Made by a program: the position numbers and the translations under genes
Sequence record: NC_047767.1
DNA from: Staphylococcus phage vB_SscM-1
Length of the DNA stretch: 64,000 nucleotides
Strand: one strand, 5' to 3'
The notes under the pieces: model-generated
Seen by the model: only the letters and a program-made list of their open reading frames with translations
Told to the model about the DNA's origin: nothing
Databases searched by the model: none
Shown: positions 1-39,088 of the stretch, one piece after another
Layout: each line of letters opens with the position of its first letter
Position numbering within the stretch: the first letter of the stretch is position 1

Positions 1-300
1 TATGAGTAAGTAGGATGATAATTAAAACTTATAGGATGCATAGGATACGATAAGTTTTACTTATAGGATAAATCTTTAGGATGATTTACGATGAAATAGG
101 CTTAGGATGTTAGGATGCTTAAGTTACTATGGGATGATAAGATAAACTTATAGGATGTCTAGGATGTGATAAGTTTTACTTATGGTTATAACCATAAGTT
201 ATAGTTTGATAAGTTTTACTTATTATATAGGTTAAGGTGATAAGAAATTCAAATGATAAATTTCGAGGTATAAAAAGTATACCACCTTCAAACATGCATG
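1..300. repeat. Repeat-rich non-coding end/origin-like region (about ten TAGGATG/TAGGATA copies, three GATAAGTTTTACTTAT copies, palindrome TTATGGTTATAACCATAA)
   Basis: Direct reading of 1-300; no ORF of 60 aa or more in any frame. Confidence 0.6.
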
Positions 301-310
301 GTTGAGCCAT

Positions 311-330
311 TGTGGATAAACTGTGGATAA
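311..330. promoter_or_regulatory. Two tandem DnaA-box sequences TGTGGATAA (reverse complement of TTATCCACA)
   Basis: ccatTGTGGATAAacTGTGGATAAggt read directly. Confidence 0.45.
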
Positions 331-419
331 GGTAAAGTGTTATATTATAAGTGAAGTCAAGTTGATAACTTGATAAAGTATTTATACTTTATAACAAGAA
401 GAAACTTGATGAGTAGGTT

Positions 420-530
420 ACTCGAACTTAAGTAACCTACGAAGGCTTTGCCCTTAGATTTAGCCTTATAAATCTAAGTCGAGCTTGCTCGAAACGAAGC
501 GGTACGCTTCACAAACGATAACTTAAACTT
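420..530. other. Cluster of four consecutive stem-loops (AGGTTACT/AGTAACCT, CTTAGATTT/AAATCTAAG, GAGC/GCTC, GAAGCG/CGCTTC)
   Basis: Inverted repeats read directly in an ORF-free stretch. Confidence 0.4.
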
Positions 531-890
531 ATACATCAGACTCACATATAATATAAAGGCTACCACTATGTCCTTATTCAGGACTACATATAAGAAGTAC
601 TCAGGAGATTAATCTATAATAGGTTAGTCTCTTTTTTATTGGATTATACTCAAGTATACCAACATGATTTTGTCAAGAATAATAGGAGTAGGTTAATGCC
701 TTTCAGGCGTAAGTAACTCCTCAAATAAAAAGGTAAAATCTGTAAGTAGCAAGGGATATTTAGGTCAAGAATGTTGACTAAGTAGCGGAGTCTGATTTGC
801 TCAAGTAGCACCGTTAAATTCCGCCTACCCAGACCAGACCGCTTCTACCGGAATAAAATTCCGATTGAATAAGATTGTACACAATGTTTC

Positions 891-925
891 TGACCGTAAA
901 AGGATTGAGCACAATTAGCTTGTGC
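891..925. terminator. 12-bp perfect hairpin GATTGAGCACAA..TTGTGCTCAATC downstream of minus-strand gene 943-1203
   Basis: Perfect inverted repeat; lies 3' of the minus-strand stop codon. Confidence 0.5.
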
Positions 926-942
926 TCAATCTAATTACTTTA

Positions 943-1203
943 TTATTTAAAATAAATATCAAACCATTCTTCATATAATGATTCTGATAAATCTTTAAAT
1001 TTATCATTTTTATATTCAGTTTCTAACCAATCATAGTCTACAGTTAAAACAAATAAATATTTTTCTTCTTTGATATCTAATATTTCTCTTAATTCATTTT
1101 CTAAAATATTACATTGATAACGATTGTTTGTAGTTTGTAATAACTTGCGTACAAGTTTATTCAATCCTTCTTTACTTGCGTTTTTACTAAATTCCTTATT
1201 CAT
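943..1203 (-). CDS. Hypothetical protein (86 aa as re-called; ORF-track start at 1398 rejected)
   Basis: In-frame ATG at 1203-1201 preceded by AAAAGGA RBS; TTGACT-N17-TATCAT promoter at about 1262-1290 lies inside the longer ORF-track version. Confidence 0.45.
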   Translation of the reverse strand: MNKEFSKNASKEGLNKLVRKLLQTTNNRYQCNILENELREILDIKEEKYLFVLTVDYDWLETEYKNDKFKDLSESLYEEWFDIYFK

Positions 1204-1451
1204 ATAAATCAGTCCTTTTCTTTTTTTGTTTGCCTTGCTTACTACACTTATAATGATAAAGCATATAGGGTATAAAGTCAATAGTATTTTGAAACTTTTT
1301 TTATAAACTTTTAAAATAAGATTGCACACAATGTTTATGACCGACAATAGATTGTACACAATTCTATTTTTAAAATTTCTATGTCGTGTTTCTTCCATAT
1401 CAAACCAAAAAAAAGAATTTAAAAAAAATTAAACTTTTTTGCCTAAAAGTG

Positions 1452-1480
1452 TTTACAACGATTTCAGTATATGATATTAT
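1452..1480 (+). promoter_or_regulatory. Early sigma-A promoter TTTACA-N17-TATTAT
   Basis: Spacing counted directly; RBS AAAGGAGG follows. Confidence 0.55.
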
Positions 1481-1509
1481 TAGGATAGTTAAAGAAAGGA
1501 GGTGCGACA

Positions 1510-1818
1510 ATGAACGCGGAACGGATTGCAACGAACATTTGTTCGGTATTCGATTTTGACGGGTACAGGGACGATATAACGCCTAGCTACTATAATAGGT
1601 TAGGTCATAGTCGCTGGTATGAGTCACTAACGGTCAATGTACCTTATGGAGTGTTAAACACTGAAATACACTTCTACAAGCGTACAAGACGTTTTAAAAG
1701 CCCTACAGCGTTGGAGTGGGGAGTTGCTAGGGAGTTCAAAGGTTATGTAATATTGAGCCTATCTGGTACTGTATACATCATGAAAGATAACAGGTTACTA
1801 GGACAAAAAAAGTTTTAA
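1510..1818 (+). CDS. Hypothetical early protein (102 aa)
   Basis: ORF track; RBS AAAGGAGGTG 6 nt upstream. Confidence 0.6.
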   Translation: MNAERIATNICSVFDFDGYRDDITPSYYNRLGHSRWYESLTVNVPYGVLNTEIHFYKRTRRFKSPTALEWGVAREFKGYVILSLSGTVYIMKDNRLLGQKKF

Positions 1819-1837
1819 AAAAAGTTTATATAAAGTG

Positions 1838-1866
1838 TTGACAACCTCAGCACTTTATAGTAAACT
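1838..1866 (+). promoter_or_regulatory. Early promoter TTGACA-N17-TAAACT
   Basis: Counted directly. Confidence 0.5.
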
Positions 1867-1935
1867 AAAGATAGTTAAAGAAACAAGGCAAGTGCAAGCC
1901 AATTGCACACAATACAATATTAGGAGATGTTAAAT

Positions 1936-2232
1936 ATGAATAAAAACGAATTAAGCACAATGGAATTACATGAAATGTTAGTGGAGGCAAACGAAAACAC
2001 GAACGGAGCATATGAACACGTTCTGAAATACGAAGAAGCGGTATTTTGGTCTGATTTAGAAATGAGAGAGTTAAGTCCACAAGAAGCTATAAACATGGCA
2101 TTATATGGCAGTTATAAAACACATCATACCTATATAGGTTTAGACGGATATGGCAACCTAGCAGGCATGACGGAGGCGGAGTATAGAAAGGAATTACTGG
2201 ACTTATACGAAGAGTATTCTCAAGAATTATAA
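1936..2232 (+). CDS. Hypothetical early protein (98 aa; start moved to second ATG)
   Basis: AGGAGA then 8 nt then ATG at 1936; first ATG at 1927 sits inside the RBS. Confidence 0.6.
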   Translation: MNKNELSTMELHEMLVEANENTNGAYEHVLKYEEAVFWSDLEMRELSPQEAINMALYGSYKTHHTYIGLDGYGNLAGMTEAEYRKELLDLYEEYSQEL

Positions 2233-2309
2233 TAGTACACAATTAAATAGCGGTAGAATTCTACCGCTTCTATATTAAATTAAACACAATCTAATAGGAG
2301 ATGATTTTA

Positions 2310-2510
2310 ATGAAAAAAGAATTAGAAATTTTTACAGGTAATATTTATACAGAAAAGGATGTACACAATTTAATTGATGAGGTATCAGAAATTTTTATTA
2401 ATGAATTGGATACAATTGAAAGCGTGTATGTAATAATTAAAAAAGTTATTAAGTCTAATGGTAATCAAATAACTGTAGAAGCTTATAACATTTCAGATTT
2501 AATAAATTAG
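2310..2510 (+). CDS. Hypothetical early protein (66 aa)
   Basis: AGGAG then 9 nt then ATG at 2310. Confidence 0.5.
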   Translation: MKKELEIFTGNIYTEKDVHNLIDEVSEIFINELDTIESVYVIIKKVIKSNGNQITVEAYNISDLIN

Positions 2511-2554
2511 AATTAAATAGCACACAATCTATTAAAAAAATTATAAAAAAGGGT

Positions 2555-2857
2555 ATGATTAAAATGACAAACCAATTAACTAAAAAAGAAATTGAACAAA
2601 CTAAAGAATATATTTTAAATGCAATTGTTGAAGAAATTAATAATCAAGGCACTACATTTAATTTTATGAAAAAGGTTTATAACGATTATATGAAAAATGA
2701 ATTTGAACCAATTAATAATATAGATTTTGAAGATAGTATTGTATACAATGTATTTGATGTGGCGTATGAAGATTTATGTTATAATTATGAATTAATTTGG
2801 GAATTAGAACAACTTGGAATATTTTCAACATCTGATTTAATGGATGATTACATTTAA
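2555..2857 (+). CDS. Hypothetical early protein (100 aa; alternative start 2564)
   Basis: ORF track; weak RBS. Confidence 0.5.
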   Translation: MIKMTNQLTKKEIEQTKEYILNAIVEEINNQGTTFNFMKKVYNDYMKNEFEPINNIDFEDSIVYNVFDVAYEDLCYNYELIWELEQLGIFSTSDLMDDYI

Positions 2858-2874
2858 TAGTACACAATCTAAAA

Positions 2875-2910
2875 GAAGCGGAATCTAATTGACCGCTTCT
2901 TTATTTTTTA
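2875..2910 (+). terminator. Rho-independent terminator GAAGCGG..CCGCTTC plus T-run
   Basis: Hairpin plus TTTATTTTTT; the same hairpin family recurs at 2246-2270, 4394-4430, 5530-5552 and 7741-7775. Confidence 0.6.
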
Positions 2911-2974
2911 TTTATTAAATTGTATGCAAATCAATTGTACACAATTCAATTCTAAAAAAACTTAAAATTAGGTC

Positions 2975-3003
2975 TTGACAAAGGTTTAAAAAAATGGTAC
3001 AAT
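2975..3003 (+). promoter_or_regulatory. Early promoter TTGACA-N17-TACAAT, embedded in an AGGTCT..AGACCT stem followed by T7
   Basis: Counted directly. Confidence 0.55.
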
Positions 3004-3283
3004 GGAGTGGGAGACCTTTTTTTATATAAAAAAGATATTAGATTGTGTACAACTATATTCTCCAGGTATTAGATTGTACACAACTAGATTGTGTGCAATT
3101 TTATAAAAAAAAATTATTTATTTCTGGTCTTTCCCCCAACCTCGTCATTTGTATAGCGGAAGGGTTAGGCTGGTTACCGCTTGTCTTACTTTCTATATAT
3201 AGTATACCATGCGGTTAAATCATTGTCAACAGTTTTAACAAACTTTTTTTAAAAATATTTTTTTATTTTTTTACCTAAATCTG

Positions 3284-3312
3284 TTGACAGGTATTTTCAT
3301 TGTATGTTACAC
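3284..3312 (+). promoter_or_regulatory. Early promoter TTGACA-N17-TTACAC with TG extension, plus the conserved leader TTAACAAATCAAAGGAG
   Basis: The same promoter-leader unit recurs at about 7086-7142, 7438-7487 and 9043-9090. Confidence 0.6.
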
Positions 3313-3342
3313 TAGGTTTAACAAATCAAAGGAGTGGTCACA

Positions 3343-3669
3343 ATGAACCAATTTAAAAAAGACTTAACAGTAAAAATTTTACAGGATTACATCGATAGCC
3401 AATACTTAGGAGATTTAGATAATCAGCTTTTAGATGAAGATATCACACAAGAAGAATACAACGAAGCGGTTAGCCTAGAAGCTATTAAGAACTACACAGA
3501 AGGCGTTTTAAGCCACGCATATAGTACAGGGTACCTAGTTAGTCCAATTGACAACAGAAGGACTGTAGAAGCTAAACATATCAAATTTAGCGGTACAGAA
3601 AACATAGAAATGATGGTTATGCTTGCCAGTGCAGTATGCCATGCAATACATCAAAAAGAAATAAATTAA
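3343..3669 (+). CDS. Hypothetical early protein (108 aa)
   Basis: AGGAG then 8 nt then ATG at 3343; the ORF-track GTG start at 3334 is rejected. Confidence 0.6.
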   Translation: MNQFKKDLTVKILQDYIDSQYLGDLDNQLLDEDITQEEYNEAVSLEAIKNYTEGVLSHAYSTGYLVSPIDNRRTVEAKHIKFSGTENIEMMVMLASAVCHAIHQKEIN

Positions 3670-3742
3670 TTTCAAATAAAGGCTTGCAACGGTCAAGCCT
3701 TTATGTTATACTAAATTTAACAAATCAAAGGAGGTCGTCAAA

Positions 3743-4129
3743 ATGATGACATTAAAAAACAAAGTCGAAATTATTGTACCAAAATATGACAATGAAGGTG
3801 CTGAGATTTCAAGTCCTGTAATCAAAAGTGAAATAAATATCATGACTAAACTTGCTGGAGGTAATACAATCACTGAGGTTAAGGGTCAATGGTACTCAGA
3901 CGATACAGAAAGCGTTATGCAAGACGACAACTTGAATATTGAGTGGTACTATGACAAGGACATGGAGGACGCTCAAAGCTTTGTATTAGGCTTGTCGGTT
4001 ATTACTAGGGTATTGATTCTACAGTACCACCAGGAGGCGGTAAGCGTTAAAATTGATGGTGTGTTATACATCGTAAACGCTGACGACCTGTACAAGCTAT
4101 CAGGCACATTTGACAATTTAATGTTCTAG
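3743..4129 (+). CDS. Hypothetical early protein (128 aa)
   Basis: RBS AGGAGG then 8 nt then ATG. Confidence 0.6.
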   Translation: MMTLKNKVEIIVPKYDNEGAEISSPVIKSEINIMTKLAGGNTITEVKGQWYSDDTESVMQDDNLNIEWYYDKDMEDAQSFVLGLSVITRVLILQYHQEAVSVKIDGVLYIVNADDLYKLSGTFDNLMF

Positions 4130-4184
4130 GGATTTATTCCCTAGGCATTATATAAAAAAATTATACAATAAAGGACGGATAAAA

Positions 4185-4379
4185 ATGAAAACAGTTAGAA
4201 TTCTAAAAAATATTGAGGTTACTTTGGCACCTATTCATAATGACATAAATTGTGGACAATACTTTGACAAATATTATACAAATGTACACAAGAATATAAC
4301 AGTTACAAAAATTCATAAACAAATAGAAAAAGATGTTTATGATAGAAAATATTTAATTGATGCAATTGAAGTTAAATAG
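4185..4379 (+). CDS. Hypothetical early protein (64 aa)
   Basis: RBS AAAGGA; terminator at 4394-4430. Confidence 0.5.
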   Translation: MKTVRILKNIEVTLAPIHNDINCGQYFDKYYTNVHKNITVTKIHKQIEKDVYDRKYLIDAIEVK

Positions 4380-4998
4380 TGTACAATCTATTAGAAGCGG
4401 TTTAAATATAACCGCTTCTTTATTTTTTATTTATTACATTGTGTACAATTTAATTCTCCAGGTCTTACATTGTGTACAATTTAATTCAAAAAAAGTGTAA
4501 AATTAAGGCTTGACAAAAATCGAAAAATATGAGATAATGAAGTGACGACTATTTTTTCTATATAAAATTATTAAATTGTGTACAAGGTACTTTTTTTGGT
4601 CATCACTTTAATTATACCAAAAATGGTCTATAAAGTCAAGGATTAATTTTTACTTATTTTCAGAATAAAATTGTGTGCAATTAGATTGTGTACAATCTTA
4701 TAAAAAAAATTATTTATTTCGGCTCTTTCCCGTTACCCCTCTTGGGCAACTCTGGTAGTTATCTTTACTACACTTATAGTATATCATGGATGAAGCGGTT
4801 TGTCAACAGAAAAGATTAAAAAAGTTTTTTTAAATTTATTTATAAAAAGTGTTGACTTATGTATATTATCATGTTATTCTATATATAGAGTTAAGGAACA
4901 GCCACAAAAAAGAAAATAAAAAAACTTTTAAAAAAGGGTTGACACTTACTCTAAAGCATGATAATATAGAGTTAACAAAAGAAAAGGAGATGTTTTAA

Positions 4999-5274
4999 AT
5001 GAAAGATTACACTTACACAATTGAGGTTAAAGGCAAAACAAAAAAGAAGACAGTTTTAACATTCTTCTACAAGGGAGAAAAATTCGGTACTAGAACAAGC
5101 ACTAAACCTCCTGAAGCATTTGAAGCTTATGCAGTGGTAGAGGAGCCAGGTCAAGCACCTGGAATACTAGCGGTTGGCAAAATCAAAACATGTGAGCAGA
5201 ACACAAGAGAAATGAACAACTTCTACTCTAGAACAGGCAGACAAGAAAAAGCTTTCACAATCTTATTAAAATAA
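4999..5274 (+). CDS. Hypothetical early protein (91 aa)
   Basis: AAAAGGAGATG.. ATG at 4999; promoters at 4850 and 4936 upstream. Confidence 0.6.
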   Translation: MKDYTYTIEVKGKTKKKTVLTFFYKGEKFGTRTSTKPPEAFEAYAVVEEPGQAPGILAVGKIKTCEQNTREMNNFYSRTGRQEKAFTILLK

Positions 5275-5388
5275 AATAGTGCAGGATTCATTCCTGCACA
5301 ATCTTTTTAAAAACTTTTAAAAAAAGTATTGACACTTAAAAACAATTATGGTAATATTAAATTAACAAATCGAAAGGAATTGATAACA

Positions 5389-5526
5389 ATGAGATACGAA
5401 ATTACCGCATTAATCAATCAAGAGTTATTTATGTATGCAACATTCAACAAGCAGGAGGCAGAAGCAAAATATAGTGAATGGTGCGACCTGTACGGTCAAG
5501 ACAAAGTGAGCATGACAACAAGCTAA
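5389..5526 (+). CDS. Small hypothetical protein (45 aa); the ORF-track version starting at 5329 is rejected
   Basis: ORF-track start TTG at 5329 is the -35 box of a TTGACA-N17-TAATAT promoter; the real ATG is at 5389, after AAAGGAA. Confidence 0.45.
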   Translation: MRYEITALINQELFMYATFNKQEAEAKYSEWCDLYGQDKVSMTTS

Positions 5527-5573
5527 ACAGAAGCGGTTTAAACCGCTTCTACCTTTAAAGGAGGTGCTGGAGC

Positions 5574-5735
5574 ATGAACATGCTGGAGCATATCAGCAGG
5601 CAAGAGCATGTGCTGGAGCAGGTGCAGGCAGACCTGCAGGCGTTTCACAAGCTGGAGAAAAAAAGAAATAAAAAACTTTTAAAAAAACTGTTGACAGTAT
5701 CGAAACTATCCTGTAATATAATAATTAAGAAATAA
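5574..5735 (+). CDS. Candidate small ORF (53 aa), GC-rich CTGGAG/CTGCAG-repeat coding sequence, basic C-terminus
   Basis: RBS AAAGGAGGTG then ATG at 5574; translated by hand; its 3' end runs through the next promoter. Confidence 0.3.
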   Translation: MNMLEHISRQEHVLEQVQADLQAFHKLEKKRNKKLLKKLLTVSKLSCNIIIKK

Positions 5736-5761
5736 CAAAAAATAACTAGGAGATGTTACAA

Positions 5762-6088
5762 ATGAAATTTATCAAAACAATTGAAGGACTTTTAAACAAA
5801 GCAGAGCAAAAAGGGGAAGCGGTTTTAAATGGTCGCATGAATGAAGGCTGGGGAATGTTTGGAGAGCTGGAGGAGAAATATGCTATTGAGATTGAGGACA
5901 ATAAGCTGATTATGAGACACTGGGGAACGCAAACAATCGAAATTGATTTAAGTGTTAACAAAATCATTTCATACTATGGTGAGTCAGTGAGTGACCGTGA
6001 CAGCTTAAATACGCTTGTATATTGTTTAGGAATGGAGCCTAACTTTAGATACTTACCAAGCAAAGACTTATTCATCTATGAGGACTAG
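5762..6088 (+). CDS. Hypothetical early protein (108 aa)
   Basis: AGGAGATGTTACAAATG; second ATG used. Confidence 0.6.
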   Translation: MKFIKTIEGLLNKAEQKGEAVLNGRMNEGWGMFGELEEKYAIEIEDNKLIMRHWGTQTIEIDLSVNKIISYYGESVSDRDSLNTLVYCLGMEPNFRYLPSKDLFIYED

Positions 6089-6101
6089 AGAGGGTTAAAA
6101 A

Positions 6102-6130
6102 GTGCTGGAGCTTTCTCCAGCACATTATTT
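6102..6130 (+). terminator. Hairpin GTGCTGGAG-CTTT-CTCCAGCAC plus T-rich tail; an identical copy lies at 6803-6830
   Basis: Read directly; two identical copies. Confidence 0.55.
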
Positions 6131-6156
6131 AAAAAAATTAAATGGAGGTTTTACAA

Positions 6157-6657
6157 ATGAAAAATAATCAAGAATTTAGCAAAAACTTTTTAAGACTTTT
6201 AAAGGTTAAGAATGTGAATGATAAGAGAGTGCAGGGTTTTATAAATGCATATAATATCAAGCTGGAGGACAAAGAAGAAAGCACGCAGGGATATGTGAAC
6301 GTATTATACAGGGGTTATGATTTTGTAGTGTCTAAAGACTATGCAGGACAAACAGCCTTATATGTGAACGGTTATAACTTGAATGTGGACTATAAACATT
6401 TTAAGCACCTAGATTTTGATAATATTGTGCGGGCGTTAGAAAGGAAGAATAATAACCGTGTTGAGTACAAGAAATCAAAAACAGAGCAGTATAAAGAATT
6501 TAAGCACCGCCAGAGAACAGAAAAGCAAATGCTGGAGTATTATAAGGAGGATGTAGAAAAGCTGGAGCAGGAACTTAAAAGACTGCAGAGAGCCTGCAAG
6601 GACAGAGCGGATAAGGTAAAAAGCTATGACAGAAAAATAGCTAGATTATTTAAATAA
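6157..6657 (+). CDS. Hypothetical early protein (166 aa), C-terminal coiled-coil-like K/E-rich
   Basis: GGAGG then 8 nt then ATG at 6157. Confidence 0.6.
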   Translation: MKNNQEFSKNFLRLLKVKNVNDKRVQGFINAYNIKLEDKEESTQGYVNVLYRGYDFVVSKDYAGQTALYVNGYNLNVDYKHFKHLDFDNIVRALERKNNNRVEYKKSKTEQYKEFKHRQRTEKQMLEYYKEDVEKLEQELKRLQRACKDRADKVKSYDRKIARLFK

Positions 6658-6717
6658 AATGTTTGACAATCATAAATTAGTATGATAATATTAAATCAAA
6701 GGTTAGGAGGTGCAGGA

Positions 6718-6798
6718 ATGAAAGAACGATTATACAGATATGGACTTGTATTTTTTGGATGTGCATTCTGGTTATTATTCAGAATGATTTATGGTTGA
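6718..6798 (+). CDS. Candidate 26-aa hydrophobic peptide (MKERLYRYGLVFFGCAFWLLFRMIYG)
   Basis: RBS AGGAGG then 7 nt then ATG; TTGACA-N17-TAATAT promoter at 6665-6693; ends in terminator 6803-6830. Confidence 0.35.
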   Translation: MKERLYRYGLVFFGCAFWLLFRMIYG

Positions 6799-6857
6799 AA
6801 AAGTGCTGGAGCTTTCTCCAGCACAACTTTAAAAAAACTTATTAGGAGATGTTGAAA

Positions 6858-7085
6858 ATGAACATGAACGAAACTATTGAGAGCCTGAGGGAAGAGTTTT
6901 TACTACTTGATAATTATTACCCTCAGGGAGTGGCGTTAGACGTTATGGAGCGTATTGTAGCATGTGGTAAGGGTAAGGAAGCGGTGGACTGTATTGTTCA
7001 GCATATGCCTGTTGAAGCACCTGCAAGTGATATTGACCTATTCATTTATGAATGCATTCATCACTTTATAAATTATTATGAATAA
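6858..7085 (+). CDS. Hypothetical early protein (75 aa)
   Basis: AGGAGATGTTGAAAATG; second ATG used. Confidence 0.55.
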   Translation: MNMNETIESLREEFLLLDNYYPQGVALDVMERIVACGKGKEAVDCIVQHMPVEAPASDIDLFIYECIHHFINYYE

Positions 7086-7151
7086 AAGTGTTGACAGTTA
7101 TTTTTAACCTATGTTACACTTGTATTAACAAATCAAAAGGAGATGTTTTCA

Positions 7152-7430
7152 ATGAAAAACACAATTAAATCAGTTATTGAGGTATTAGAGAATAAAGGCT
7201 ACACAGTGGAGCAGGCAGAAGAAAACAGAATGCTGGAGGTTATAAGTCCTGCAGGTGTTGTGGAAGATATTACACCTAGCTTTGTTAATGCTGGAGCAGT
7301 AGAGGACTTACCAATTAGTGAATTCATCAATGAAGACACTAGAAACATATGTTTTGAGTTTTACGGTTGGACTTTAAACTTCCCAACAGCTAAAGAGTTA
7401 ATAACAGAAATTGAAAAAGTTTTTAAATAA
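7152..7430 (+). CDS. Hypothetical early protein (92 aa)
   Basis: Conserved leader plus AGGAGATGTTTTCAATG. Confidence 0.6.
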   Translation: MKNTIKSVIEVLENKGYTVEQAEENRMLEVISPAGVVEDITPSFVNAGAVEDLPISEFINEDTRNICFEFYGWTLNFPTAKELITEIEKVFK

Positions 7431-7496
7431 ATGTTTGACAGAAATATTTAACCTATGATACAATGAATTTAACAAAACAAAAGGAGATTGATAAAA

Positions 7497-7760
7497 ATGA
7501 TTATTAAAGAAATAGTACAAGGTTTCGTAGCAAATGAATTCGACAGAATGGAAGACTTGAAAGAGTCAGCGGTTAGCTGGTTAGAACTAACAGAAGATAG
7601 CTACAAGGAAGAGCAGAAGCACAACCAACAAGATTACAGCAGGAACATTAAAGCCTGCAGGGAAGCAATGCAGGAGGTCGAAAACACAGAAGACCTGCAG
7701 GTAATCAATGAGTGGTTAAGCTTTGCTGGAGTACAATATGAGGTCGAAGCGGGTTACTAA
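7497..7760 (+). CDS. Hypothetical early protein (87 aa)
   Basis: AGGAGATTGATAAAAATG; the TTG start of the ORF track is rejected. Confidence 0.6.
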   Translation: MIIKEIVQGFVANEFDRMEDLKESAVSWLELTEDSYKEEQKHNQQDYSRNIKACREAMQEVENTEDLQVINEWLSFAGVQYEVEAGY

Positions 7761-7789
7761 CCCGCTTCTAAATTAAAGGAGGTAATCAC

Positions 7790-8077
7790 ATGTTTACTAA
7801 AAAAGAAAACTACTCAAAATTACTACAGGTGCAAGAAATAAAAGCCGATACAACTTTTGAAGATACTACAACATTTTGGAACGTGGCAACATTTGAAAAC
7901 TCAACAGATGAATTAGAAGATAGCTATATCACAATTGAGGTATGGTCTGATGAAAGCAACTCAATAAAGATAATAGAATCAGACGACACAGACCATCAAG
8001 AGATTAGCGACAAGCTACCTAAAAATGTACTAAACCACTTACACAAATTAGTATATGCAGAACTAAATAAATTATAA
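7790..8077 (+). CDS. Hypothetical early protein (95 aa), acidic
   Basis: RBS AAAGGAGGTAATCAC ATG. Confidence 0.6.
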   Translation: MFTKKENYSKLLQVQEIKADTTFEDTTTFWNVATFENSTDELEDSYITIEVWSDESNSIKIIESDDTDHQEISDKLPKNVLNHLHKLVYAELNKL

Positions 8078-8092
8078 AAAGGAGGTAATCAC

Positions 8093-8275
8093 ATGTATGG
8101 TATTTGGAACGCAATAGAAGACGTGCAGGAGGTAAGAGACTACAGCAGGGAGCAGGTCATAGAGTTTGCTAATATTGAGCGTGTAACAGTCACAGGCATA
8201 AGAGAAGAAATCAAGACACTAGAAGAAGCGGAAGAGTTTTTACTAACACTAGGCTATATAGTAGAGGAGATGTAG
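8093..8275 (+). CDS. Hypothetical early protein (60 aa)
   Basis: Identical RBS AAAGGAGGTAATCAC ATG. Confidence 0.55.
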   Translation: MYGIWNAIEDVQEVRDYSREQVIEFANIERVTVTGIREEIKTLEEAEEFLLTLGYIVEEM

Positions 8276-8278
8276 ACA

Positions 8279-8443
8279 ATGACAATTAAAGAACTTATAG
8301 AGCAGTTGCAGGCAGTAGAGGACAAAGACCTACAGATATACGCATGTAATGAGCAGGGAGACAATTTACCTATTAACTCAGTATCATTGTATGATGAAGA
8401 GGACAAGCACAGCAACACAAACCCATTAGGACTAAACTATTAA
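8279..8443 (+). CDS. Small hypothetical protein (54 aa), translationally coupled
   Basis: ATG 3 nt after the upstream TAG; GAGGAG 11 nt upstream; translated by hand. Confidence 0.4.
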   Translation: MTIKELIEQLQAVEDKDLQIYACNEQGDNLPINSVSLYDEEDKHSNTNPLGLNY

Positions 8444-8456
8444 GGAGATGTTTATA

Positions 8457-8840
8457 ATGAACAAAGAACAGTATAACTATTTATTTAATAAGGTAACAGT
8501 ATTCAAGGATATGGAGGACTACAACAACAAGACAATTGACGGAGCAGAGCAATTAGACGAAGCACTGCAGGAAGGCTTTATACAAGACCTCACAAGAGGT
8601 GTATATAATGGAGCAACGGACACATTCACACCTAACACATTAAATGCTAAAGAACTTGTATTAGCAGTACAACAATATTTATATGAAACTGATTGGTTAT
8701 CTACTCTATACACTCAACATGAGGAAGATGACGACCTAGAAACTTTTGAGCAGTTAACAAGGTTTGATATGCTAGAGGACTATCTCAACTGTTATAGTGT
8801 GTTTACAATCGGTAACAGAATATATGCAGATATAAGCTAA
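8457..8840 (+). CDS. Hypothetical early protein (127 aa)
   Basis: AGGAGATGTTTATAATG; second ATG used. Confidence 0.6.
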   Translation: MNKEQYNYLFNKVTVFKDMEDYNNKTIDGAEQLDEALQEGFIQDLTRGVYNGATDTFTPNTLNAKELVLAVQQYLYETDWLSTLYTQHEEDDDLETFEQLTRFDMLEDYLNCYSVFTIGNRIYADIS

Positions 8841-9099
8841 TATAAGGCTCCTAGAGAGCCTTTAGATATTTTAGGTATAAAACTATTAAGAGAGGAATGG
8901 TGAGCGTATATGAGCGTACTAGAATCGGTAGACAATGCAATAAAGGAATTTAATCAATTACCTTATGAAGAGAAGAAAAACAAAGAAATCACGATTGATA
9001 AATTAATTGAAAAAAATCTAAAAAAACTTTAATAAAACCTTTGACAGATATTTTAGTTGTATGTTATACTTGTATTAACAAATCAAAGGAGTGGTAAAA

Positions 9100-9285
9100 A
9101 TGAAAGATACAATCAAAATGTACCAAGAAAGAATCAAATACTTCACGAAAGAGATTCACAGAATGCTAGACCTAATCGACAACGCAGAAATTCACGAACT
9201 GAATGATATCCTAGCAAGTGTGGACGACCTAAGATTCTTAAGAGCAGATGCTGAAAGAATGCTAGAATTTTATGAAGCAAGATAA
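9100..9285 (+). CDS. Hypothetical early protein (61 aa)
   Basis: Conserved promoter-leader; AGGAG then 8 nt then ATG. Confidence 0.55.
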   Translation: MKDTIKMYQERIKYFTKEIHRMLDLIDNAEIHELNDILASVDDLRFLRADAERMLEFYEAR

Positions 9286-9292
9286 AATGAGT

Positions 9293-9320
9293 AAGGGAAT
9301 TAATTCCCTTGCTTTTTTAT
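9293..9320 (+). terminator. Terminator AAGGGAATTAATTCCCTT plus T6
   Basis: Perfect palindrome followed by GCTTTTTT. Confidence 0.65.
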
Positions 9321-9483
9321 TTGTCTTGAATTAACTTGCACACAATGTAATCTATTCTAATTAGATTGTACACAATATAACCCACCCCGTGCGTTTTCAA
9401 CACATTGTGCACAACCTAATATCAGCTACGGGTGCTACCTGAGGTTCATATTTTTCGTGCTTAAATATAATTTTAAAAAATTT

Positions 9484-9660
9484 CCTAAATAAGGTAAATA
9501 TAAAAGTCAACATCCATACCCCCTTATTTAAAGTCAACATTACTAGCCCTTAACCCTCCCCCTATAATAAAAAATTAGGAAAGGGTAATTTATAAAAGTC
9601 AACATTTATAGTATATCTATAAAAGTCAACATCTACAACCCTTTCCTAAAAGTCAACACT
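9484..9660. repeat. Five direct iterons (T)AAAGTCAACA(T/C) at the early plus / minus-block strand switch
   Basis: Copies at about 9504, 9530, 9596, 9626 and 9651; no -10 box at promoter spacing, so they are not simple promoters. Confidence 0.55.
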
Positions 9661-10690
9661 ACTTATTATATACCTCCCTATATCTACACTTAATAAGTAC
9701 AGGGTCTACATAGGTATATTGGTTAAGGCTCCCTATGATATGATTGAATGTGCTCCTACGTGCATCCACCTCTATATAAGTTATATCATTGTCCTTACAA
9801 TACTGTTTCTTTATTATGTCCGATTCCTTAGTAATTTTATGGCTCATATATCCTGTTACTTCTTGATAGTGTTGCATACCATGTACTTCTACTGCTGTAT
9901 GAGATTCAGGTAAGTAGAAATCAAAACGTTTCAATCCTAGGTCTTTAAACTTGTACTCTCTTATATAAGGTATATTAAGTATATCTAGATAGGCTTGTGT
10001 GACCCTCTCACCGAAAGATGAATAAGATTTAGTACAAGTACACTTATAGGTATCACTTGTTAAGTCTAGCACCCTTATACTTTTTTTAGTATGGCAATTA
10101 GGGCAAGTTGTTGATATTCTACTTCTAGATGAGTATCTATAGTTGAAGAGGTCTTCTCTATTAGTTACATATTGGTGTATATGCTTATGGTGGTAAAGCA
10201 ACTTACTCTGCGGTACTGTGCTGTGTGGTACGTAGCTATCTCCTTTTATTGCTTTGAGTTTTTGATTAGAGATTATACCATATACTTCTTCCCTTATATT
10301 ATAGACTAAATAAAAGTACGTATCTGCTTCCTTTTTAACTGCTAGTATCTCACACCCTTTTACCTTATCTCCTACTTTATAGTCTTGCATCGTGTACTTC
10401 TTATTTTGTGTTGTGATATAGTTAAGCTTAACTCTCTTTAAGTTATTGACTTGTTGTGTGAACGTTTTATTGTTATACGTAATATCTATAAGCACGGTCT
10501 TAGACTGACTAGGACTATACTTAAGGTGTAAGTGACCTTCTATATCATGATACTTAAATGGTACGGTATGGTTCGTAGCTTTCCAATATATAGACTTGCC
10601 ACGTCTTGGTAATGTAGATAGGTCTATAAAGTTAGTTATACCTGTCTTAGTCTCTGAATAATAAATGTTATTGTTATTATAGTATTTCAT
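9659..10690 (-). CDS. Free-standing homing-endonuclease-like protein with a Vsr/DUF559-like nuclease C-terminus (343 aa)
   Basis: C-terminal RFDFYLPES..VEVHG..H..K..D motif shared with 43287-44219 and 60856-61788; RBS AAAGGAG; promoter 10715-10743. Confidence 0.55.
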   Translation of the reverse strand: MKYYNNNNIYYSETKTGITNFIDLSTLPRRGKSIYWKATNHTVPFKYHDIEGHLHLKYSPSQSKTVLIDITYNNKTFTQQVNNLKRVKLNYITTQNKKYTMQDYKVGDKVKGCEILAVKKEADTYFYLVYNIREEVYGIISNQKLKAIKGDSYVPHSTVPQSKLLYHHKHIHQYVTNREDLFNYRYSSRSRISTTCPNCHTKKSIRVLDLTSDTYKCTCTKSYSSFGERVTQAYLDILNIPYIREYKFKDLGLKRFDFYLPESHTAVEVHGMQHYQEVTGYMSHKITKESDIIKKQYCKDNDITYIEVDARRSTFNHIIGSLNQYTYVDPVLIKCRYREVYNK

Positions 10691-10714
10691 TAAAAAACAT
10701 CTCCTTTTTTTCTT

Positions 10715-10743
10715 ATTATAACATAAGAGTTTGGAGATGTCAA
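10715..10743 (-). promoter_or_regulatory. Consensus promoter TTGACA-N17-TATAAT (minus strand); a twin with the same TTGACATCTCCAAAC core lies at 11323-11351
   Basis: Counted on the reverse complement. Confidence 0.6.
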
Positions 10744-10899
10744 TAGGTTAAAGTATTTCTATTATAAGTGATATCGTACAAAGGATGATAAGTATAGCTA
10801 GTAATACAATACCTAAGACTCTATCTAAGTCGTCTCTGGCATCTACTATCATAAATACACTGAATATGAGAAGGAAGGCAAGTATAAAAGGCATTATCA

Positions 10900-11286
10900 T
10901 TACTTATCCTCCCCTAGTAAGTGTGGATTCTCAAATTTGTTGCCTATGATTTCTACATCAGTATCCCCTTGTTCATTAACGACTAGTTTCCAACTTTGAC
11001 CATTTTGCCATGCAGGATACATTAGCCAATATCCATCAATACGTCTCTTCACAACGCCAATTGCTTTATATCCCTCCGATATAGCTGTAACAATATCTCC
11101 CTCATATATCTCCTTACCGTTCTTATCTAATAGCCCAGTTGATTGTAAGAGTTCGATATCTTCGAAATTATCCACTTCGGTATATTTTCCATTCACCCAT
11201 ACAATCTCTTTATACTTATAATTAATTTCTTGAACATCAACAATCTTCTTGTGTATGTTTAAATATGCTCTAAACTTCGGTATCAT
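10900..11286 (-). CDS. YopX-family protein (128 aa)
   Basis: N-terminal MIPKFRAY.., C-terminal IIGNKFENPHLL; paralogous to 12165-12575 and 13313-13672. Confidence 0.65.
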   Translation of the reverse strand: MIPKFRAYLNIHKKIVDVQEINYKYKEIVWVNGKYTEVDNFEDIELLQSTGLLDKNGKEIYEGDIVTAISEGYKAIGVVKRRIDGYWLMYPAWQNGQSWKLVVNEQGDTDVEIIGNKFENPHLLGEDK

Positions 11287-11379
11287 TTATTTGTCCTCCT
11301 CTATAACATCTCATTTTGTCTTATTATATCATAGACGTTTGGAGATGTCAATTATTAATTTCCTCATACCATAATCTTA

Positions 11380-11592
11380 TTAGAACTTTAATATATATTT
11401 AAATTCCAATTCCTCATACTTAATATCTGCTATACTACTTGTTGGTATCTCTACATACTCACCATTACTAGATATTACATTTATTTTATCCTTACTAAAT
11501 ATCTCTCTTAGTACCTTATCATTATTAAATACAGAATAATATATATAAAGGTCATTATTTTTTGTTATTATTTTTATTAAGTGATAGTGCAT
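11380..11592 (-). CDS. Hypothetical protein (70 aa)
   Basis: RBS GGAGG then 8 nt then ATG. Confidence 0.5.
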   Translation of the reverse strand: MHYHLIKIITKNNDLYIYYSVFNNDKVLREIFSKDKINVISSNGEYVEIPTSSIADIKYEELEFKYILKF

Positions 11593-11604
11593 TATTATTC
11601 CTCC

Positions 11605-11760
11605 TTAGTCTTCGACAACAATGATAGGTCGTTCAAATTCACTATCTTTATACTCAACCTCAATTGTTATATCTTGTTCATCTGATGTTTTTAAATCAAC
11701 ATTTTCCCCATACCGTTCAGCAATATAGTTTAGTTCTTCTATCATCTCTTTTATTAGCAT
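11605..11760 (-). CDS. Small acidic hypothetical protein (51 aa; not in the ORF track)
   Basis: RBS AAGGAGG then 8 nt then ATG at 11760; translated by hand. Confidence 0.45.
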   Translation of the reverse strand: MLIKEMIEELNYIAERYGENVDLKTSDEQDITIEVEYKDSEFERPIIVVED

Positions 11761-11773
11761 TTAAAAGTCCTCC

Positions 11774-11938
11774 TTATTTTTCATCAAATTCTTGCAAAGT
11801 TTTTAATACTTTAAATCCTTCCATTTTAGAAACCCTACTACCAATAAAACGCTCTGGTGTATGTTCTATTTCTTCTAAGGCTTCTTCTGGATAACCGTCT
11901 GCTAGGTCTATAATAAAGTCTTCGTGCTCGTAGTCCAT
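11774..11938 (-). CDS. Small acidic hypothetical protein (54 aa; not in the ORF track)
   Basis: RBS AAGGAGGG then 6 nt then ATG at 11938. Confidence 0.45.
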   Translation of the reverse strand: MDYEHEDFIIDLADGYPEEALEEIEHTPERFIGSRVSKMEGFKVLKTLQEFDEK

Positions 11939-11981
11939 TAATTACCCTCCTTGTCTGGTTTTATAATTATTTATTAGTATC

Positions 11982-12164
11982 TTAAATTCCATAAGTTATT
12001 ACCAAAGAAATCATAAAAATAAAAGCAAAAAACATAAGAGTAAGTGCTGATATTGTAAATAACTTATTATATATTTCCTTTTCAATTGTCATTACTAAAA
12101 CAAATGATGTACCAAAAAAGAAAAAAGATGTTATCATTAGTAAGCATAATATAGTTAGTATCAT
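11982..12164 (-). CDS. Small membrane protein (60 aa, two TM segments)
   Basis: Hydrophobic; ATG directly after the upstream TAA; RBS GAGGAGG. Confidence 0.5.
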   Translation of the reverse strand: MILTILCLLMITSFFFFGTSFVLVMTIEKEIYNKLFTISALTLMFFAFIFMISLVITYGI

Positions 12165-12594: not shown

Positions 12595-13131
12595 TTAACT
12601 TATGTGCTTCCACGAACGTTTATTTTTCACATCTCTAATAGCTTGTTCTGATACATTAAACATTAATGACAATTCTTTAACTGTTTTTGAGCTCTCTCTT
12701 ATATATTTAACTTTTTCTTCATTTAGTTTAGCTGAATGTTGTTTTTCTCCTCTGCTCACGTTAGCTAATCCATATTCATGAGCGTGAATTGAATTTTCTG
12801 TAGGTGTTGACCATTCCAAATTTTCTAAATTAGAATTTTGTTTATTCCCGTCTATATGATTAACATATGCTTTATTAAGGGGGTTAGGTAGAAAGGCAGT
12901 TGCAACAATTCTATGAACTAAATGCCTTTTACATTTTCCGTTTATACATAAATTTACCATTGGATAACCTGCGTTTCCTAAATACTGTGACATTTGTCTA
13001 CCTTTTATTTTCATGTTACTCGTTTTACGTTGTATAACCCTGTCTAAACTTTTTATATTACCTAAATTACTAACCTCATAAAAACCCTCATATCCTTTTA
13101 CATCTTTCCATTCCTCATACTCATACGCCAT
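12595..13131 (-). CDS. HNH homing endonuclease (NUMOD4-like N-terminus, HNH_3 core, C-terminal HTH)
   Basis: EGFYEVSNLG; HRIVA..NHIDGNKQNSNLENLEW..N motif. Confidence 0.75.
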   Translation of the reverse strand: MAYEYEEWKDVKGYEGFYEVSNLGNIKSLDRVIQRKTSNMKIKGRQMSQYLGNAGYPMVNLCINGKCKRHLVHRIVATAFLPNPLNKAYVNHIDGNKQNSNLENLEWSTPTENSIHAHEYGLANVSRGEKQHSAKLNEEKVKYIRESSKTVKELSLMFNVSEQAIRDVKNKRSWKHIS

Positions 13132-32750: not shown

Positions 32751-33437
32751 TTAAGATAATCTTTTTAGAATACTTATAAGCTCTTTAATATCTTCTGCGT
32801 TATAATCATCAAAATCTCTACCTTCAAAGAAATCATAAGCTTCATATCTTACTCCGTCACTAATATTCTCTGAATCTATAATTTCCTCTAAATCATAAAA
32901 GGAACTAATAAGTTCTTCCATATCCACATCATCTAATAAATCATGAAACTCCTGAGCATCATCTGACATAGATTTTAAAATTATATTATGGTAAGTGCTA
33001 CCCTCACCTGCACTTGTATACAAATGATTAATATTAAGAATTACTAGTGTGTTCACTACAACATTAAATTCACTTATAATAGGTAACTCTTCTACTAAAT
33101 ATTTAATATTACTATTAATAATATCATTAATAAGTTCATCACCTAGCATAGCTTTTTCTTCTTTAGAGCTATACTCTCTAAGATTAGAGAAGTCATCTCT
33201 ATATGTTATTAGTGAGTTTCTATCTGTACTTAATAATCTATCCATAGCACCTAGTAGCATAATCATATCGTGATGTGTACTCATTTCCTTAAGTAAATCC
33301 ATTAGTACAAAAAAGGACTCTTCTCCTATAGCTTTTTTAATATCCTGTAACTCAAAGGATTCTATCATAGCTAGTGTATCATCTATTTCTTCAATTGTAG
33401 GCAAATGTTTAATTAAATTATTTTCCTTCATTATCAT
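32751..33437 (-). CDS. Hypothetical acidic protein (228 aa)
   Basis: ORF track. Confidence 0.5.
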   Translation of the reverse strand: MIMKENNLIKHLPTIEEIDDTLAMIESFELQDIKKAIGEESFFVLMDLLKEMSTHHDMIMLLGAMDRLLSTDRNSLITYRDDFSNLREYSSKEEKAMLGDELINDIINSNIKYLVEELPIISEFNVVVNTLVILNINHLYTSAGEGSTYHNIILKSMSDDAQEFHDLLDDVDMEELISSFYDLEEIIDSENISDGVRYEAYDFFEGRDFDDYNAEDIKELISILKRLS

Positions 33438-33648
33438 CTTCCTCTTCTAATTCTTTGAATAGCTCCTCTGCTGTCATTCCTAAAGCTTTTTCTAATTTAG
33501 CTCTATTAGCACTTCTAGGTTTCTTTTTACCATACTCCCAGTAGGATATAAGAGAATAATGTACACCTAGTTCACTTGCTAAACTCCTTAAAGTAAATCC
33601 TTGTTCTTCTCTTACTTTTTTAAGTACTAGTGGTTTATTTTCCTCCAT
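33418..33648 (-). CDS. XRE-family helix-turn-helix transcriptional regulator
   Basis: TLRSLASELGVHYSLISYWEYGKKKP HTH. Confidence 0.75.
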   Translation of the reverse strand: MEENKPLVLKKVREEQGFTLRSLASELGVHYSLISYWEYGKKKPRSANRAKLEKALGMTAEELFKELEEEDDNEGK

Positions 33649-37732: not shown

Positions 37733-37797
37733 AAGTGCAAGGGATTCGAACCCTTAGACTTAGCCTGCCTCCGGACACGCCGACTAGACACTTCTAT
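37733..37797 (-). other. tRNA-like minihelix: perfect T-arm (AAGGG-TTCGAAT-CCCTT) and 7-bp acceptor stem, but no D or anticodon arms
   Basis: Reverse complement TAGAAGTGTCTAGTCGGCGTGTCCGGAGGCAGGCTAAGTCTAAGGGTTCGAATCCCTTGCACTTCT folded by hand. Confidence 0.35.
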
Positions 37798-39070: not shown

Positions 39071-39088
39071 GTTTATTTTAAACTTTTT

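Follow-up and report, generated by a model that had tools for sequence, protein, structure and literature searches.

We analysed a stretch of 64,000 nucleotides of Staphylococcus phage vB_SscM-1 (NC_047767.1; hereafter the window), whose left part carries a family of short palindromic sites with the core TTGYRYRCAA. The closest megablast matches of window positions 1-12000 were Twort-like phages (Herelleviridae, Twortvirinae) of Mammaliicoccus/Staphylococcus sciuri. The best of these were MSShimriz1 (91% identity), PG-2021_31, PG-2021_76, PG-2021_33, ZCSS1 and UHP46, and the records that carry a taxonomy are placed in the genus Sciuriunavirus. UHP46, a Sciuriunavirus, matches the window over the same record coordinates as ZCSS1, and its recorded host is S. 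aureus. The matched stretch of these relatives bears genes annotated as "terminal repeat-encoded protein" (tre), and the records of the Kayviruses Stab21 and K label their homologous region a long terminal repeat (LTR). Judged from these comparisons, the window belongs to a Sciuriunavirus-like Twort-type phage and the region is its early tre block. In phage K, the genes of the homologous region are the earliest to be expressed, with a peak within ~2 min (PMC9241854; PMC11598898). Window positions 1-685 had no counterpart in the phage collection searched.

Exact matches to TTGYRYRCAA number 20 in the window; 100 dinucleotide-preserving shuffles gave 1.14 on average and 4 at most. Of the 20, 19 fall within 875-9414, and the remaining one (33014) lies inside an open reading frame (ORF). 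Four further copies with one mismatch (2233, 2518, 2858 and 4377) have TAG for TTG and overlap a stop codon. When the sites are aligned in both orientations, the full site is a 22-bp palindrome, ATTAgATTGT(RY)ACAATcTAAT (consensus duplex ATTAGATTGTGTACAATCTAAT), and the 26 best window matches of a weight matrix built from the sites all lie inside 875-9414. When k-mers of 800-9500 and of the remaining window were compared in an unbiased way, the motif words came out at 10-14 copies versus 0-1. Copies are arranged in tandem at 15 or 30-31 bp. The preliminary description, made from the letters alone, had listed about 20 copies, and all 20 positions hold a site within 8 nt. The true core starts are 875, 1322, 1352, 1903, 2233, 2518, 2858, 2935, 3043, 3074, 3089, 4377, 4439, 4470, 4576, 4671, 4686, 9336, 9366 and 9405; a site at 2920 and two copies inside ORFs (1145 and 2739) had been missed. 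Its claim of restriction to the early region held up on the scale of a genome, as 20 of the 21 sites of the complete MSShimriz1 lie in the ~10-kb tre block. The claim that the sites are intergenic needs a small correction: they are operator-like sites in non-coding early DNA, except that ORFs contain 2 of the 23, a small share given that ~67% of 800-9500 is coding by approximate gene coordinates (binomial ~1e-8).

The sites are best described from left to right, with distances counted from predicted promoter starts, which were placed 7 nt after the -10 element of consensus matches. A single site (TTGTACACAA, 875-884) is found immediately to the left of hairpin 902-932, at the end of gene 943-1203, the only tre gene on the minus strand; the orthologues of this site in MSShimriz1, PG-2021_31 and PG-2021_33 have a flipped centre (TTGTGTACAA). 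The hairpin itself, a bidirectional terminator, has as its arms two diverged, motif-like sequences (TTGAGCACAA and TTGTGCTCAA), and its flanks are also of the motif type. Gene 943-1203 contains a copy of doubtful family membership (TTGCGTACAA, 1145-1154), centred +96.5 from the start of the minus-strand promoter 1281-1253 (P-1281), and the different version of this gene in ZCSS1 also has an internal copy, at 4180. Upstream of P-1281 is a pair of sites 30 bp apart (1322-1361), composed of 1322-1331 (TTGCACACAA) and 1352-1361 (TTGTACACAA). The first member overlaps the predicted start of a candidate plus-strand promoter, 1289-1317 (P+1289). The pair is centred -80.5 and -110.5 from P-1281 and +2.5 and +32.5 from P+1289, and this geometry is the same in three relatives. 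The next site (1903-1912) is a single one, located in the leader (5') of gene 1936-2232; its centre is at +34.5 relative to the start of promoter 1838-1866, and it is kept in four of four relatives.

The order of stop codon, site and terminator recurs at three gene ends. The one-mismatch form TAGTACACAA lies between the TAA stop of gene 1936-2232 and the terminator 2249-2268 (site 2233-2242), and again between the TAA stop of gene 2555-2857 and a terminator hairpin at ~2875-2901 that was read from the sequence (site 2858-2867). In both cases the TAG of the site provides a second in-frame stop; at 2858, ZCSS1 has the full form TTGCACACAA. At the third gene end, TAGTGTACAA (4377-4386) overlaps the stop codon of gene 4185-4379, just before the terminator 4393-4419. 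The short spacer between genes 2301-2510 and 2555-2857 holds another one-mismatch site (TAGCACACAA, 2518-2527). Inside gene 2555-2857 there is a copy of doubtful membership that may be a chance match (TTGTATACAA, 2739-2748). Its core is one that we take to be like the GntR operator of B. subtilis, a resemblance that the literature did not confirm.

Most of the remaining sites surround promoters 2975, 4510 and 4639, which are near-consensus, convergent and followed by T-run or A-run spacers, with no plausible ORF after them ("orphans"). P2975 is a strong promoter (2975-3003, plus strand; TTGACA, 17 nt, TACAAT, with TG), which has no ORF with a ribosome-binding site downstream and faces the minus-strand promoter 3229-3201. 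The latter belongs to a ~95-nt non-coding unit (3100-3194; with the promoter, 3100-3229, minus strand) that is homologous to a Kayvirus unit. Upstream of P2975 are two sites 15 bp apart (2920-2944; centres -85.5 and -70.5), whose centre sequences differ in every relative while the arms are unchanged. Between P2975 and the 3' end of the minus-strand unit lie three more (3043, 3074 and 3089, spanning 3043-3098; centres +37.5, +68.5 and +83.5). In the second module, two sites 31 bp apart (4439-4479; centres -101.5 and -70.5) precede the orphan promoter 4510-4538. A single site, 4576-4585, is shared between the convergent promoters P+4510-4538 and P-4639-4611 (4510-4639), centred +35.5 from the former and +23.5 from the latter. 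P-4639 is preceded by two sites 15 bp apart (4671-4695; centres -71.5 and -86.5), which are at the same time past the 3' end of the second minus-strand unit. This unit (~75 nt, non-coding, 4697-4771; 4697-4806, minus strand, with promoter 4806-4778) is paralogous to 3100-3229 and has a fold z-score of -2.3. From the predicted starts of P-3229 and P-4806, site centres lie at +80 to +100. Modules 2858-3230 and 4377-4810 are paralogous duplicates (77% identical), and the site counts are therefore not fully independent. The last group (9336, 9366 and 9405; 9336-9414) follows the last tre terminator, 9289-9314, and precedes a block of AAAAGTCAACA repeats and the start of a block of minus-strand genes.

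Seen together, the sites flank a few orphan promoters at fixed offsets (~-71, ~-86 or -101, and ~+36), which are the same in relatives that keep each module. PG-2021_31 and PG-2021_33 are an exception: they are without the minus-strand 4639-type module, and their downstream sites are at +51.5 and +67.5. Distances among flanking sites (95, 106 and 108 bp, also 30-31 and 62 bp) are near whole helical turns, and tight pairs are 15 bp apart. According to the preliminary description, every site is either flanked by a stop codon and a terminator hairpin or immediately upstream of an early promoter. This is true of some (e.g. 2233, 2858 and 4377), while several are found 24-38 bp downstream of predicted starts, between convergent promoters, or past the 3' ends of the small minus-strand units. 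It had also proposed the operator set of a dedicated early-gene regulator. An operator set of early promoters in general is not supported, because most strong early promoters are without a site (3284, 4939, 5329, 5691, 6663, 7091, 7435 and 9041), and the interval 4696-9335 has none in spite of at least eight strong promoters.

The promoters and small units around the sites are older than the sites themselves. Conservation of P2975 extends to Stab21 and phage K and includes the first bases transcribed from it. When Stab21 5345-5570 and phage K 4889-5169 were aligned with the two modules of the window, all four were seen to share the plus-strand promoter, the first transcribed bases (GAAGTGAAGACCTTTTTT or similar), an AT-rich spacer, and a ~90-nt minus-strand unit with its promoter. 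The segments that bear sites (e.g. 3043-3098) are missing from the homologous Kayvirus modules, and a convergent orphan promoter pair of Stab21 (~7549-7680) also has no site. Since the Kayviruses examined share this scaffold and have no sites, sequence comparison identifies the motif as a lineage-specific overlay on conserved immediate-early orphan promoters and non-coding RNA (ncRNA) units. Small RNAs of phage K lie in the homologous intergenic regions, and one of them, snc002, occupies 5022-5067 on the minus strand (PMC9241854). Its position corresponds to the AT-rich spacer together with the initial bases at the 3' end of the minus-strand unit, and minus-strand transcription of such units is thus experimentally supported in a relative. 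A scan of window 1-12000 with Rfam found no family at gathering score and only two sub-threshold chance matches. The orphan promoters form a family of their own (window 2975-3030, 4510-4565 and 4585-4639; Stab21 5363-5420 and 7549-7690), whose transcripts begin with a conserved sequence, GRAGTGRNGACC, and continue into a T-run. Its members are often convergent and have no ORF after them. This family is common to Sciuriunavirus and Kayvirus, and its candidate roles include short RNAs, RNA polymerase sinks and transcription-primed origins.

Four relatives (MSShimriz1, PG-2021_31, PG-2021_33 and ZCSS1) keep the sites at orthologous positions. Neither of the two outcomes that the preliminary description had named as refutations, a similar density over the whole genome and a lack of positional conservation in relatives, was therefore observed. 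To see which bases are protected, each window site was compared with its orthologue in MSShimriz1, PG-2021_31 and ZCSS1. The arms (positions 1-3 and 8-10) had changed in 11 of 360 comparisons (3.1%), with one transition to three transversions. The centre (positions 4-7) had changed in 46 of 240 (19%; transitions to transversions 35:4), the immediate flanks in 10.8% (31:43) and the outer flanks in 8.1% (98:90). The difference between arms and outer flanks (Fisher p = 2.6e-4) and that between the centre, 35:4, and the flanks, 98:90 (p = 5e-6), carry p-values that are approximate because of shared ancestry. The centre turns over fast but stays Y-R-Y-R: at site 875 it reads TACA in the window and TGTA in three relatives, sites 2920 and 3043 behave likewise, and the orientation also flips between the paralogous modules. 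As such a flip amounts to an inversion of the site, the site is without functional polarity. Left and right flanks showed 234 complementary pairs versus 233 +/- 6 expected (P = 0.47; 69 distinct sites from seven genomes), which rules out a hairpin kept by compensatory change and makes the half-sites independent.

Two simple readings were discarded on these grounds. A promoter element, with TACAAT on one strand, does not agree with an orientation that flips between orthologues and with a TG that is out of register. A single-site hairpin, with the arms as stem and Y-R-Y-R as loop, does not agree with the lack of covariation. Meanwhile, the protected arms, the Y-R-Y-R centre, the unpaired flanks and the flipping fit a symmetric protein dimer on duplex DNA. 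With its two-fold symmetry and conserved half-sites, the element also has the form of a repressor operator, for which ~14-22 bp is usual.

The near self-complementarity of the motif raises the alternative that it acts in RNA. Transcripts would pair with one another, and the orphan RNAs or 3' extensions would regulate those mRNAs that have a copy in the leader or at the stop codon; in a variant of this explanation, hairpins between adjacent copies would stabilise transcripts or terminate them. Neighbours at 15-bp spacing can indeed fold into a 13-bp stem (fold z-score -2.9), and a Y-R-Y-R centre keeps Watson-Crick or G-U pairing in three of four combinations, which would also permit transitions only. 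The centre types on the plus strand are clustered (runs test P = 0.05), with AC-type copies in the leaders and 3' ends of the left mRNAs and GT-type copies in the transcripts of orphan promoters, and the small RNAs of phage K lie in the homologous intergenic regions (PMC9241854). However, the clustering can be explained by duplication history, the flanks have no compensatory changes within sites, and the centres of adjacent partner copies are not co-conserved in orientation between relatives. The arms had one transition in 360 comparisons, although RNA would allow the transitions that G-U pairing tolerates. Finally, sites between divergent promoters, and those of a promoter-poor array in the phage PMS3 that is described below, need not be transcribed at all. 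We consider an RNA-level role, in either variant, to be very unlikely.

The distribution of the motif was examined in further phages. ZCSS1, PG-2021_31 and PG-2021_33, all from Mammaliicoccus, have 15-16 sites each in corresponding places, as counted over the tre block and its flanks. In the complete 139.7-kb genome of MSShimriz1, also from Mammaliicoccus, the one site outside the tre block matches a site ~100 bp from the start of the ZCSS1 record. No site was found in the complete 140-kb genome of the Kayvirus vB_SauM-C, from Staphylococcus aureus, or in the first 66 kb of Stab21, whose record gives no host. The complete genome of PMS3, another Mammaliicoccus phage, has 11 sites. Core-protein identity places PMS3 outside the pair formed by Sciuriunavirus and Kayvirus, and tblastn of the tre-region ORFs of the window against its first 50 kb found no homologue of any of them. 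Seven exact and three degenerate sites of PMS3 form an array in a ~600-bp non-coding, very AT-rich-looking stretch of the tre region, three are in non-coding DNA at 39.3-39.7 kb, and one is at 72193. One PMS3 site lies ~73 bp upstream of the predicted start of a consensus promoter. Both PMS3-type arrays are kept in the first 45 kb of PG-2021_12, a PMS3-like Mammaliicoccus phage. Meanwhile, PG-2021_4, a 92-kb Sextaecvirus of Mammaliicoccus (M. sciuri), has no site, and the motif is thus not supported as a general signature of Mammaliicoccus phages. An IMG/VR scan for tandem sites returned 53 stretches, all of them unrelated local single clusters and none Sciuriunavirus-like. A similar scan of bacterial genomes gave no Staphylococcaceae among the matches listed, which says nothing either way. 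As to the fine structure of the PMS3 array (1750-2320), AGATCT(G) follows many of the motif copies, a perfect 20-bp palindrome (ACAATCCAGATCTGGATTGT) links two neighbours, and several copies sit 4 nt after a hexamer that resembles TATAAT and lacks a good -35.

This array brings to mind a role in replication, end formation or packaging, in which the sites would be origin iterons or loading sites at transcription-primed origins, or would mark the generation of the terminal repeat. In PMS3 and PG-2021_12, ~10 sites at ~70-bp intervals occupy the 600-bp AT-rich non-coding stretch, and both phages have the second, three-site non-coding cluster. Sites are also found near record starts, at ~100 bp in ZCSS1 and at ~40-75 bp in PG-2021_33 and PG-2021_12, a triplet marks the right edge of the tre block of the window, and the orphan promoters lead into T-run/A-run spacers and no ORF. 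Kayvirus repeat borders carry a sequence of their own, a 12-bp inverted repeat (TAAGTACCTGGG / CCCAGGTACTTA) that we confirmed at the annotated repeat border of Stab21 and that forms a pair 8.4 kb apart in vB_SauM-C. It resembles the motif in being a short conserved sequence tied to the long terminal repeat of Twort-like phages, yet it differs in sequence and has two copies, at the borders only, whereas the motif has ~24 copies that are mostly internal. Against such a role, the sites of the window come in groups of 1-3 over 8.5 kb at fixed promoter offsets, unlike an origin; the borders of the PMS3 tre block are without sites; and record starts are not proven physical ends. The earlier suggestion of a packaging site is not favoured, since the majority of sites lie within the repeat and some PMS3 sites are remote from the tre region of that phage. 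We regard replication, end formation or packaging as unlikely.

The family could, alternatively, be selfish or neutral. It would then be a small extragenic palindrome similar to REP/BIME elements or PeSL cassettes, spreading by recombination and slippage in a hyper-plastic early region and serving mainly as a module junction, with no dedicated binder. Like REPs, the copies are extragenic imperfect palindromes, often in tandem and frequently just after stop codons, as in the three gene ends that share the order of stop codon, site and terminator. Arrays gain or lose exact 15-bp units, with two to four sites downstream of P2975 among relatives, and sites flank segments that differ between relatives, such as the alternative minus-strand gene of ZCSS1. 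REPs, however, are stem-loops of RNA or DNA found genome-wide, while the motif is local (20 of 21 sites in 10 kb of the 140 kb) and shows no stem covariation. Conservation by position, with 3% change in the arms and 8-11% in the flanks, is not expected from gene conversion. Fixed promoter offsets across genomes, and the return of the same 10-mer in the PMS3 lineage, which has no tblastn homologues of the tre-region ORFs, also speak against it. We therefore find a selfish or neutral repeat highly improbable.

Based on these findings, we propose, with a probability of about one half, that the sites bind a dimeric regulator on duplex DNA, which would gate or shut down a subset of the immediate-early promoters. 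Each half of a two-fold symmetric dimer would read one TTG(T) arm, while the central alternating pyrimidine-purine step would serve the shape (deformability) of the DNA and not base contacts. Proteins on the sites that flank a promoter (~-71, ~-86 or -101, and ~+36) would interact, and could loop out or occlude it. They might also act as roadblocks to read-through between adjacent early transcription units. The outcome would be that a subset of very strong immediate-early promoters is shut down or gated after the first minutes of infection.

Several observations weigh against such a regulator. The promoter starts on which the geometry is built are consensus predictions. Only the candidate promoter 1289 has a site over its predicted start (+2.5), and the other sites lie off the -35 and -10 elements, so that any repression would have to work by the looping or roadblock proposed here. 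The PMS3 array is mostly without good promoters and looks more like an origin or nucleation region. The relatives are ~90% identical and share ancestry, and the footprint statistics overstate the number of independent events. Finally, the search for the binder gave no candidate: among 21 tre-region proteins scanned, none had a Pfam DNA-binding domain. Phylogenetic profiling found ~35 genes common to MSShimriz1 and PMS3 and missing or divergent in Kayvirus, and 30 of these, scanned with Pfam, likewise had none. The DNA-binding core proteins (Xre helix-turn-helix (HTH), HU-like, 540-aa HTH, sigma and anti-sigma) are closer to those of the siteless Kayviruses than to those of PMS3, which means that none of them tracks the motif.

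Individual candidates for the binder were rejected accordingly. The Xre-type HTH (33418-33648, minus strand) belongs to the core genes of Herelleviridae, with ~72-77% identity to its Kayvirus counterparts and 54-58% to those of PMS3-like phages, and the HU-like protein, the 540-aa HTH, a 150-aa "DNA binding protein", sigma and anti-sigma have a similar pattern. A zinc-ribbon gene beside the second PMS3 cluster is also a core gene (72% to Kayvirus, 46% to PMS3) and has no site upstream in the window. The minus-strand tre gene 943-1203 was considered as an autoregulated repressor; it has no Pfam domain and no PMS3 homologue by tblastn, and ZCSS1 keeps the sites yet carries a version that is only 20% identical. 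That version is closer in length and termini to Kayvirus g010c. TetR-like proteins are neither annotated in MSShimriz1 nor present among the phage proteins scanned. The dedicated early-gene regulator that the preliminary description had envisaged is thus not evident in the region, as no Pfam DNA-binding domain is present in its 21 tre proteins and PMS3 has the motif with no tblastn homologue of the tre ORFs in its first 50 kb. Among the tre-region and lineage-shared proteins scanned, Pfam recognised no DNA-binding protein, and the cognate protein may have a fold that Pfam does not recognise.

Alternatively, the binder may come from the host. A Mammaliicoccus transcription factor, e.g. a dimer of the TetR or GntR type, would bind the sites and couple the early promoters to host physiology, or be titrated by them; we hold this possible, though not probable. 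It would explain a motif found in two Twortvirinae lineages of one host genus, one of them (PMS3) outside the Sciuriunavirus and Kayvirus pair and with no tblastn homologue of the tre ORFs in its first 50 kb, and missing from two Kayvirus genomes (vB_SauM-C complete, Stab21 over its first 66 kb). No phage-encoded candidate came up among the proteins scanned, and bacterial TetR regulators protect almost the same sequence. Nevertheless, the unrelated 92-kb phage of M. sciuri has no site, and UHP46, a Sciuriunavirus, is recorded on S. aureus. In addition, several of the ~35 extra shared genes are 85-95% identical, which indicates horizontal exchange between the two Mammaliicoccus lineages, and a phage-encoded binder could have moved in the same way. 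In a more specific and equally tentative form, the factor would be a small-molecule-responsive TetR- or GntR-like host dimer, and two virulent lineages would have wired its sites around orphan promoters and ncRNA units. The start of infection would then be gated by the state of the host, by analogy a doubtful but conceivable non-sporulating counterpart of the Spo0A switch of phi29.

The nearest sequence parallels of the motif are in fact operators of TetR-family regulators. The box of Escherichia coli RcdA is TTGTnnACA (PMC3535384), and Mycobacterium tuberculosis Rv3066 protects TTGTGTACATTTGTACACAA (PMC3467072). Their cores are almost identical to the phage 10-mer and are bound by HTH dimers (PMC3535384, PMC3467072); unlike the phage sites, their two elements stand head to head in the promoter region of the regulator itself, in unrelated bacteria. 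This likeness suggests, by analogy, the kind of binder and not its identity or its membership in the family. In literature searches with the exact 10- and 12-mers, the only matches were primers, att sites of prophages and the two TetR operators, with no phage description, and the Kayvirus transcriptome papers do not mention the motif.

Among well-studied control systems, lambda OL/OR, lac O1-O3 and gal OE-OI are repressor-operator systems with auxiliary operators and DNA looping. The phage sites are similar in being ~20-bp palindromes, several per control region, at near-helical spacing and on both sides of a promoter. They differ in that nearly all are off the -35 and -10 elements, that ~24 are spread over 8.5 kb, and that Pfam found no cognate repressor gene. 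Anti-CRISPR-associated (Aca) repressors shut off very strong immediate-early promoters, and the logic proposed here is alike, with near-consensus early promoters lowered after an initial burst through inverted-repeat operators. Aca operators, however, overlap their promoter and the HTH gene is in the same operon, neither of which was seen here. In Bacillus phage phi29, the Spo0A boxes are boxes for a host factor in the early region of a virulent phage. They resemble the present sites in that a virulent phage has many short sites near early promoters, with a distribution that may follow the host more than the phage phylogeny; here, in contrast, an unrelated Mammaliicoccus phage is without the site, and the host factor and its regulon are only hypothesised. 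Given the missing cognate protein and the placement of the operators, assignment to a named repressor family fails. From the sequences compared, the sites are a conserved, operator-like family of cis-elements, with no earlier description in the literature searched, whose function we infer.

The tre block and its surroundings contain further repeats and features. Window positions 1-330 hold iteron-like repeats (TGATAAGTTTTACTTAT four times, TAGGATG ~10 times and a 52-nt unit twice), followed by two perfect DnaA boxes (TTATCCACA) at 311-319 and 322-330, which could make this an origin-like or end-proximal region. The Stab21 LTR has TAGGATAGGA repeats at 2556-2650. Short repeats of the AAGTAGC type occupy an equivalent place in the lineages of the window, Stab21 and PMS3, with three copies at window 755-830, four to five of TAAGTAGCTC in Stab21 3271-3343, and ~7 of CTAAGTAGT in PMS3 1424-1700. 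They adjoin, on the left, the only minus-strand tre gene in the window and Stab21 and the motif array in PMS3. At the junction of the tre block and the minus-strand gene block, directly after the last motif triplet, AAAAGTCAACA(T) is repeated ~6 times (9499-9663), and the equivalent junction of PMS3 (5375-5460) has four copies of TATGTCAACA; these junction repeats may be connected with the border of the repeat or with a signal for injection or replication. A further two words occur specifically in 800-9500, namely GAAGCGGT/ACCGCTTC and TGCTGGAG/CTCCAGCA, with 12 copies each versus 0 elsewhere in the window. The top repeated 9-mer of the Stab21 LTR (Stab21 1-11400; 15 copies), GAAGCGGTT, forms many terminator stems, and some copies seem to lie inside ORFs.

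Homing-endonuclease-like ORFs are present at 9659-10690, 12595-13131, 43287-44219 and 60856-61788. The first abuts the right edge of the tre block in the window phage, MSShimriz1 and PMS3, with 73% identity between the MSShimriz1 and PMS3 counterparts, and seems absent from the ZCSS1 annotation. Further along, ~36400-39100 is an ORF-poor stretch of ~2.6 kb, at a place where Kayviruses have tRNAs and the very abundant lncRNA2; the whole window has no tRNA gene.

Twort-like staphylococcal phages are leading candidates for phage therapy, and these sites bear on how their immediate-early transcription may be shut off or gated. The 22-bp duplex offers a direct bait for the binding protein, the geometry of the three orphan promoters gives reporter constructs, and the Kayviruses are natural controls, having the scaffold without the sites. 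Should the binder be encoded by the phage, the regulator would have a fold that Pfam does not recognise and would be horizontally shared between Mammaliicoccus phage lineages. Should the binder be a host factor, the sites would represent the sensing of host state by a strictly virulent phage of a non-sporulating coccus.

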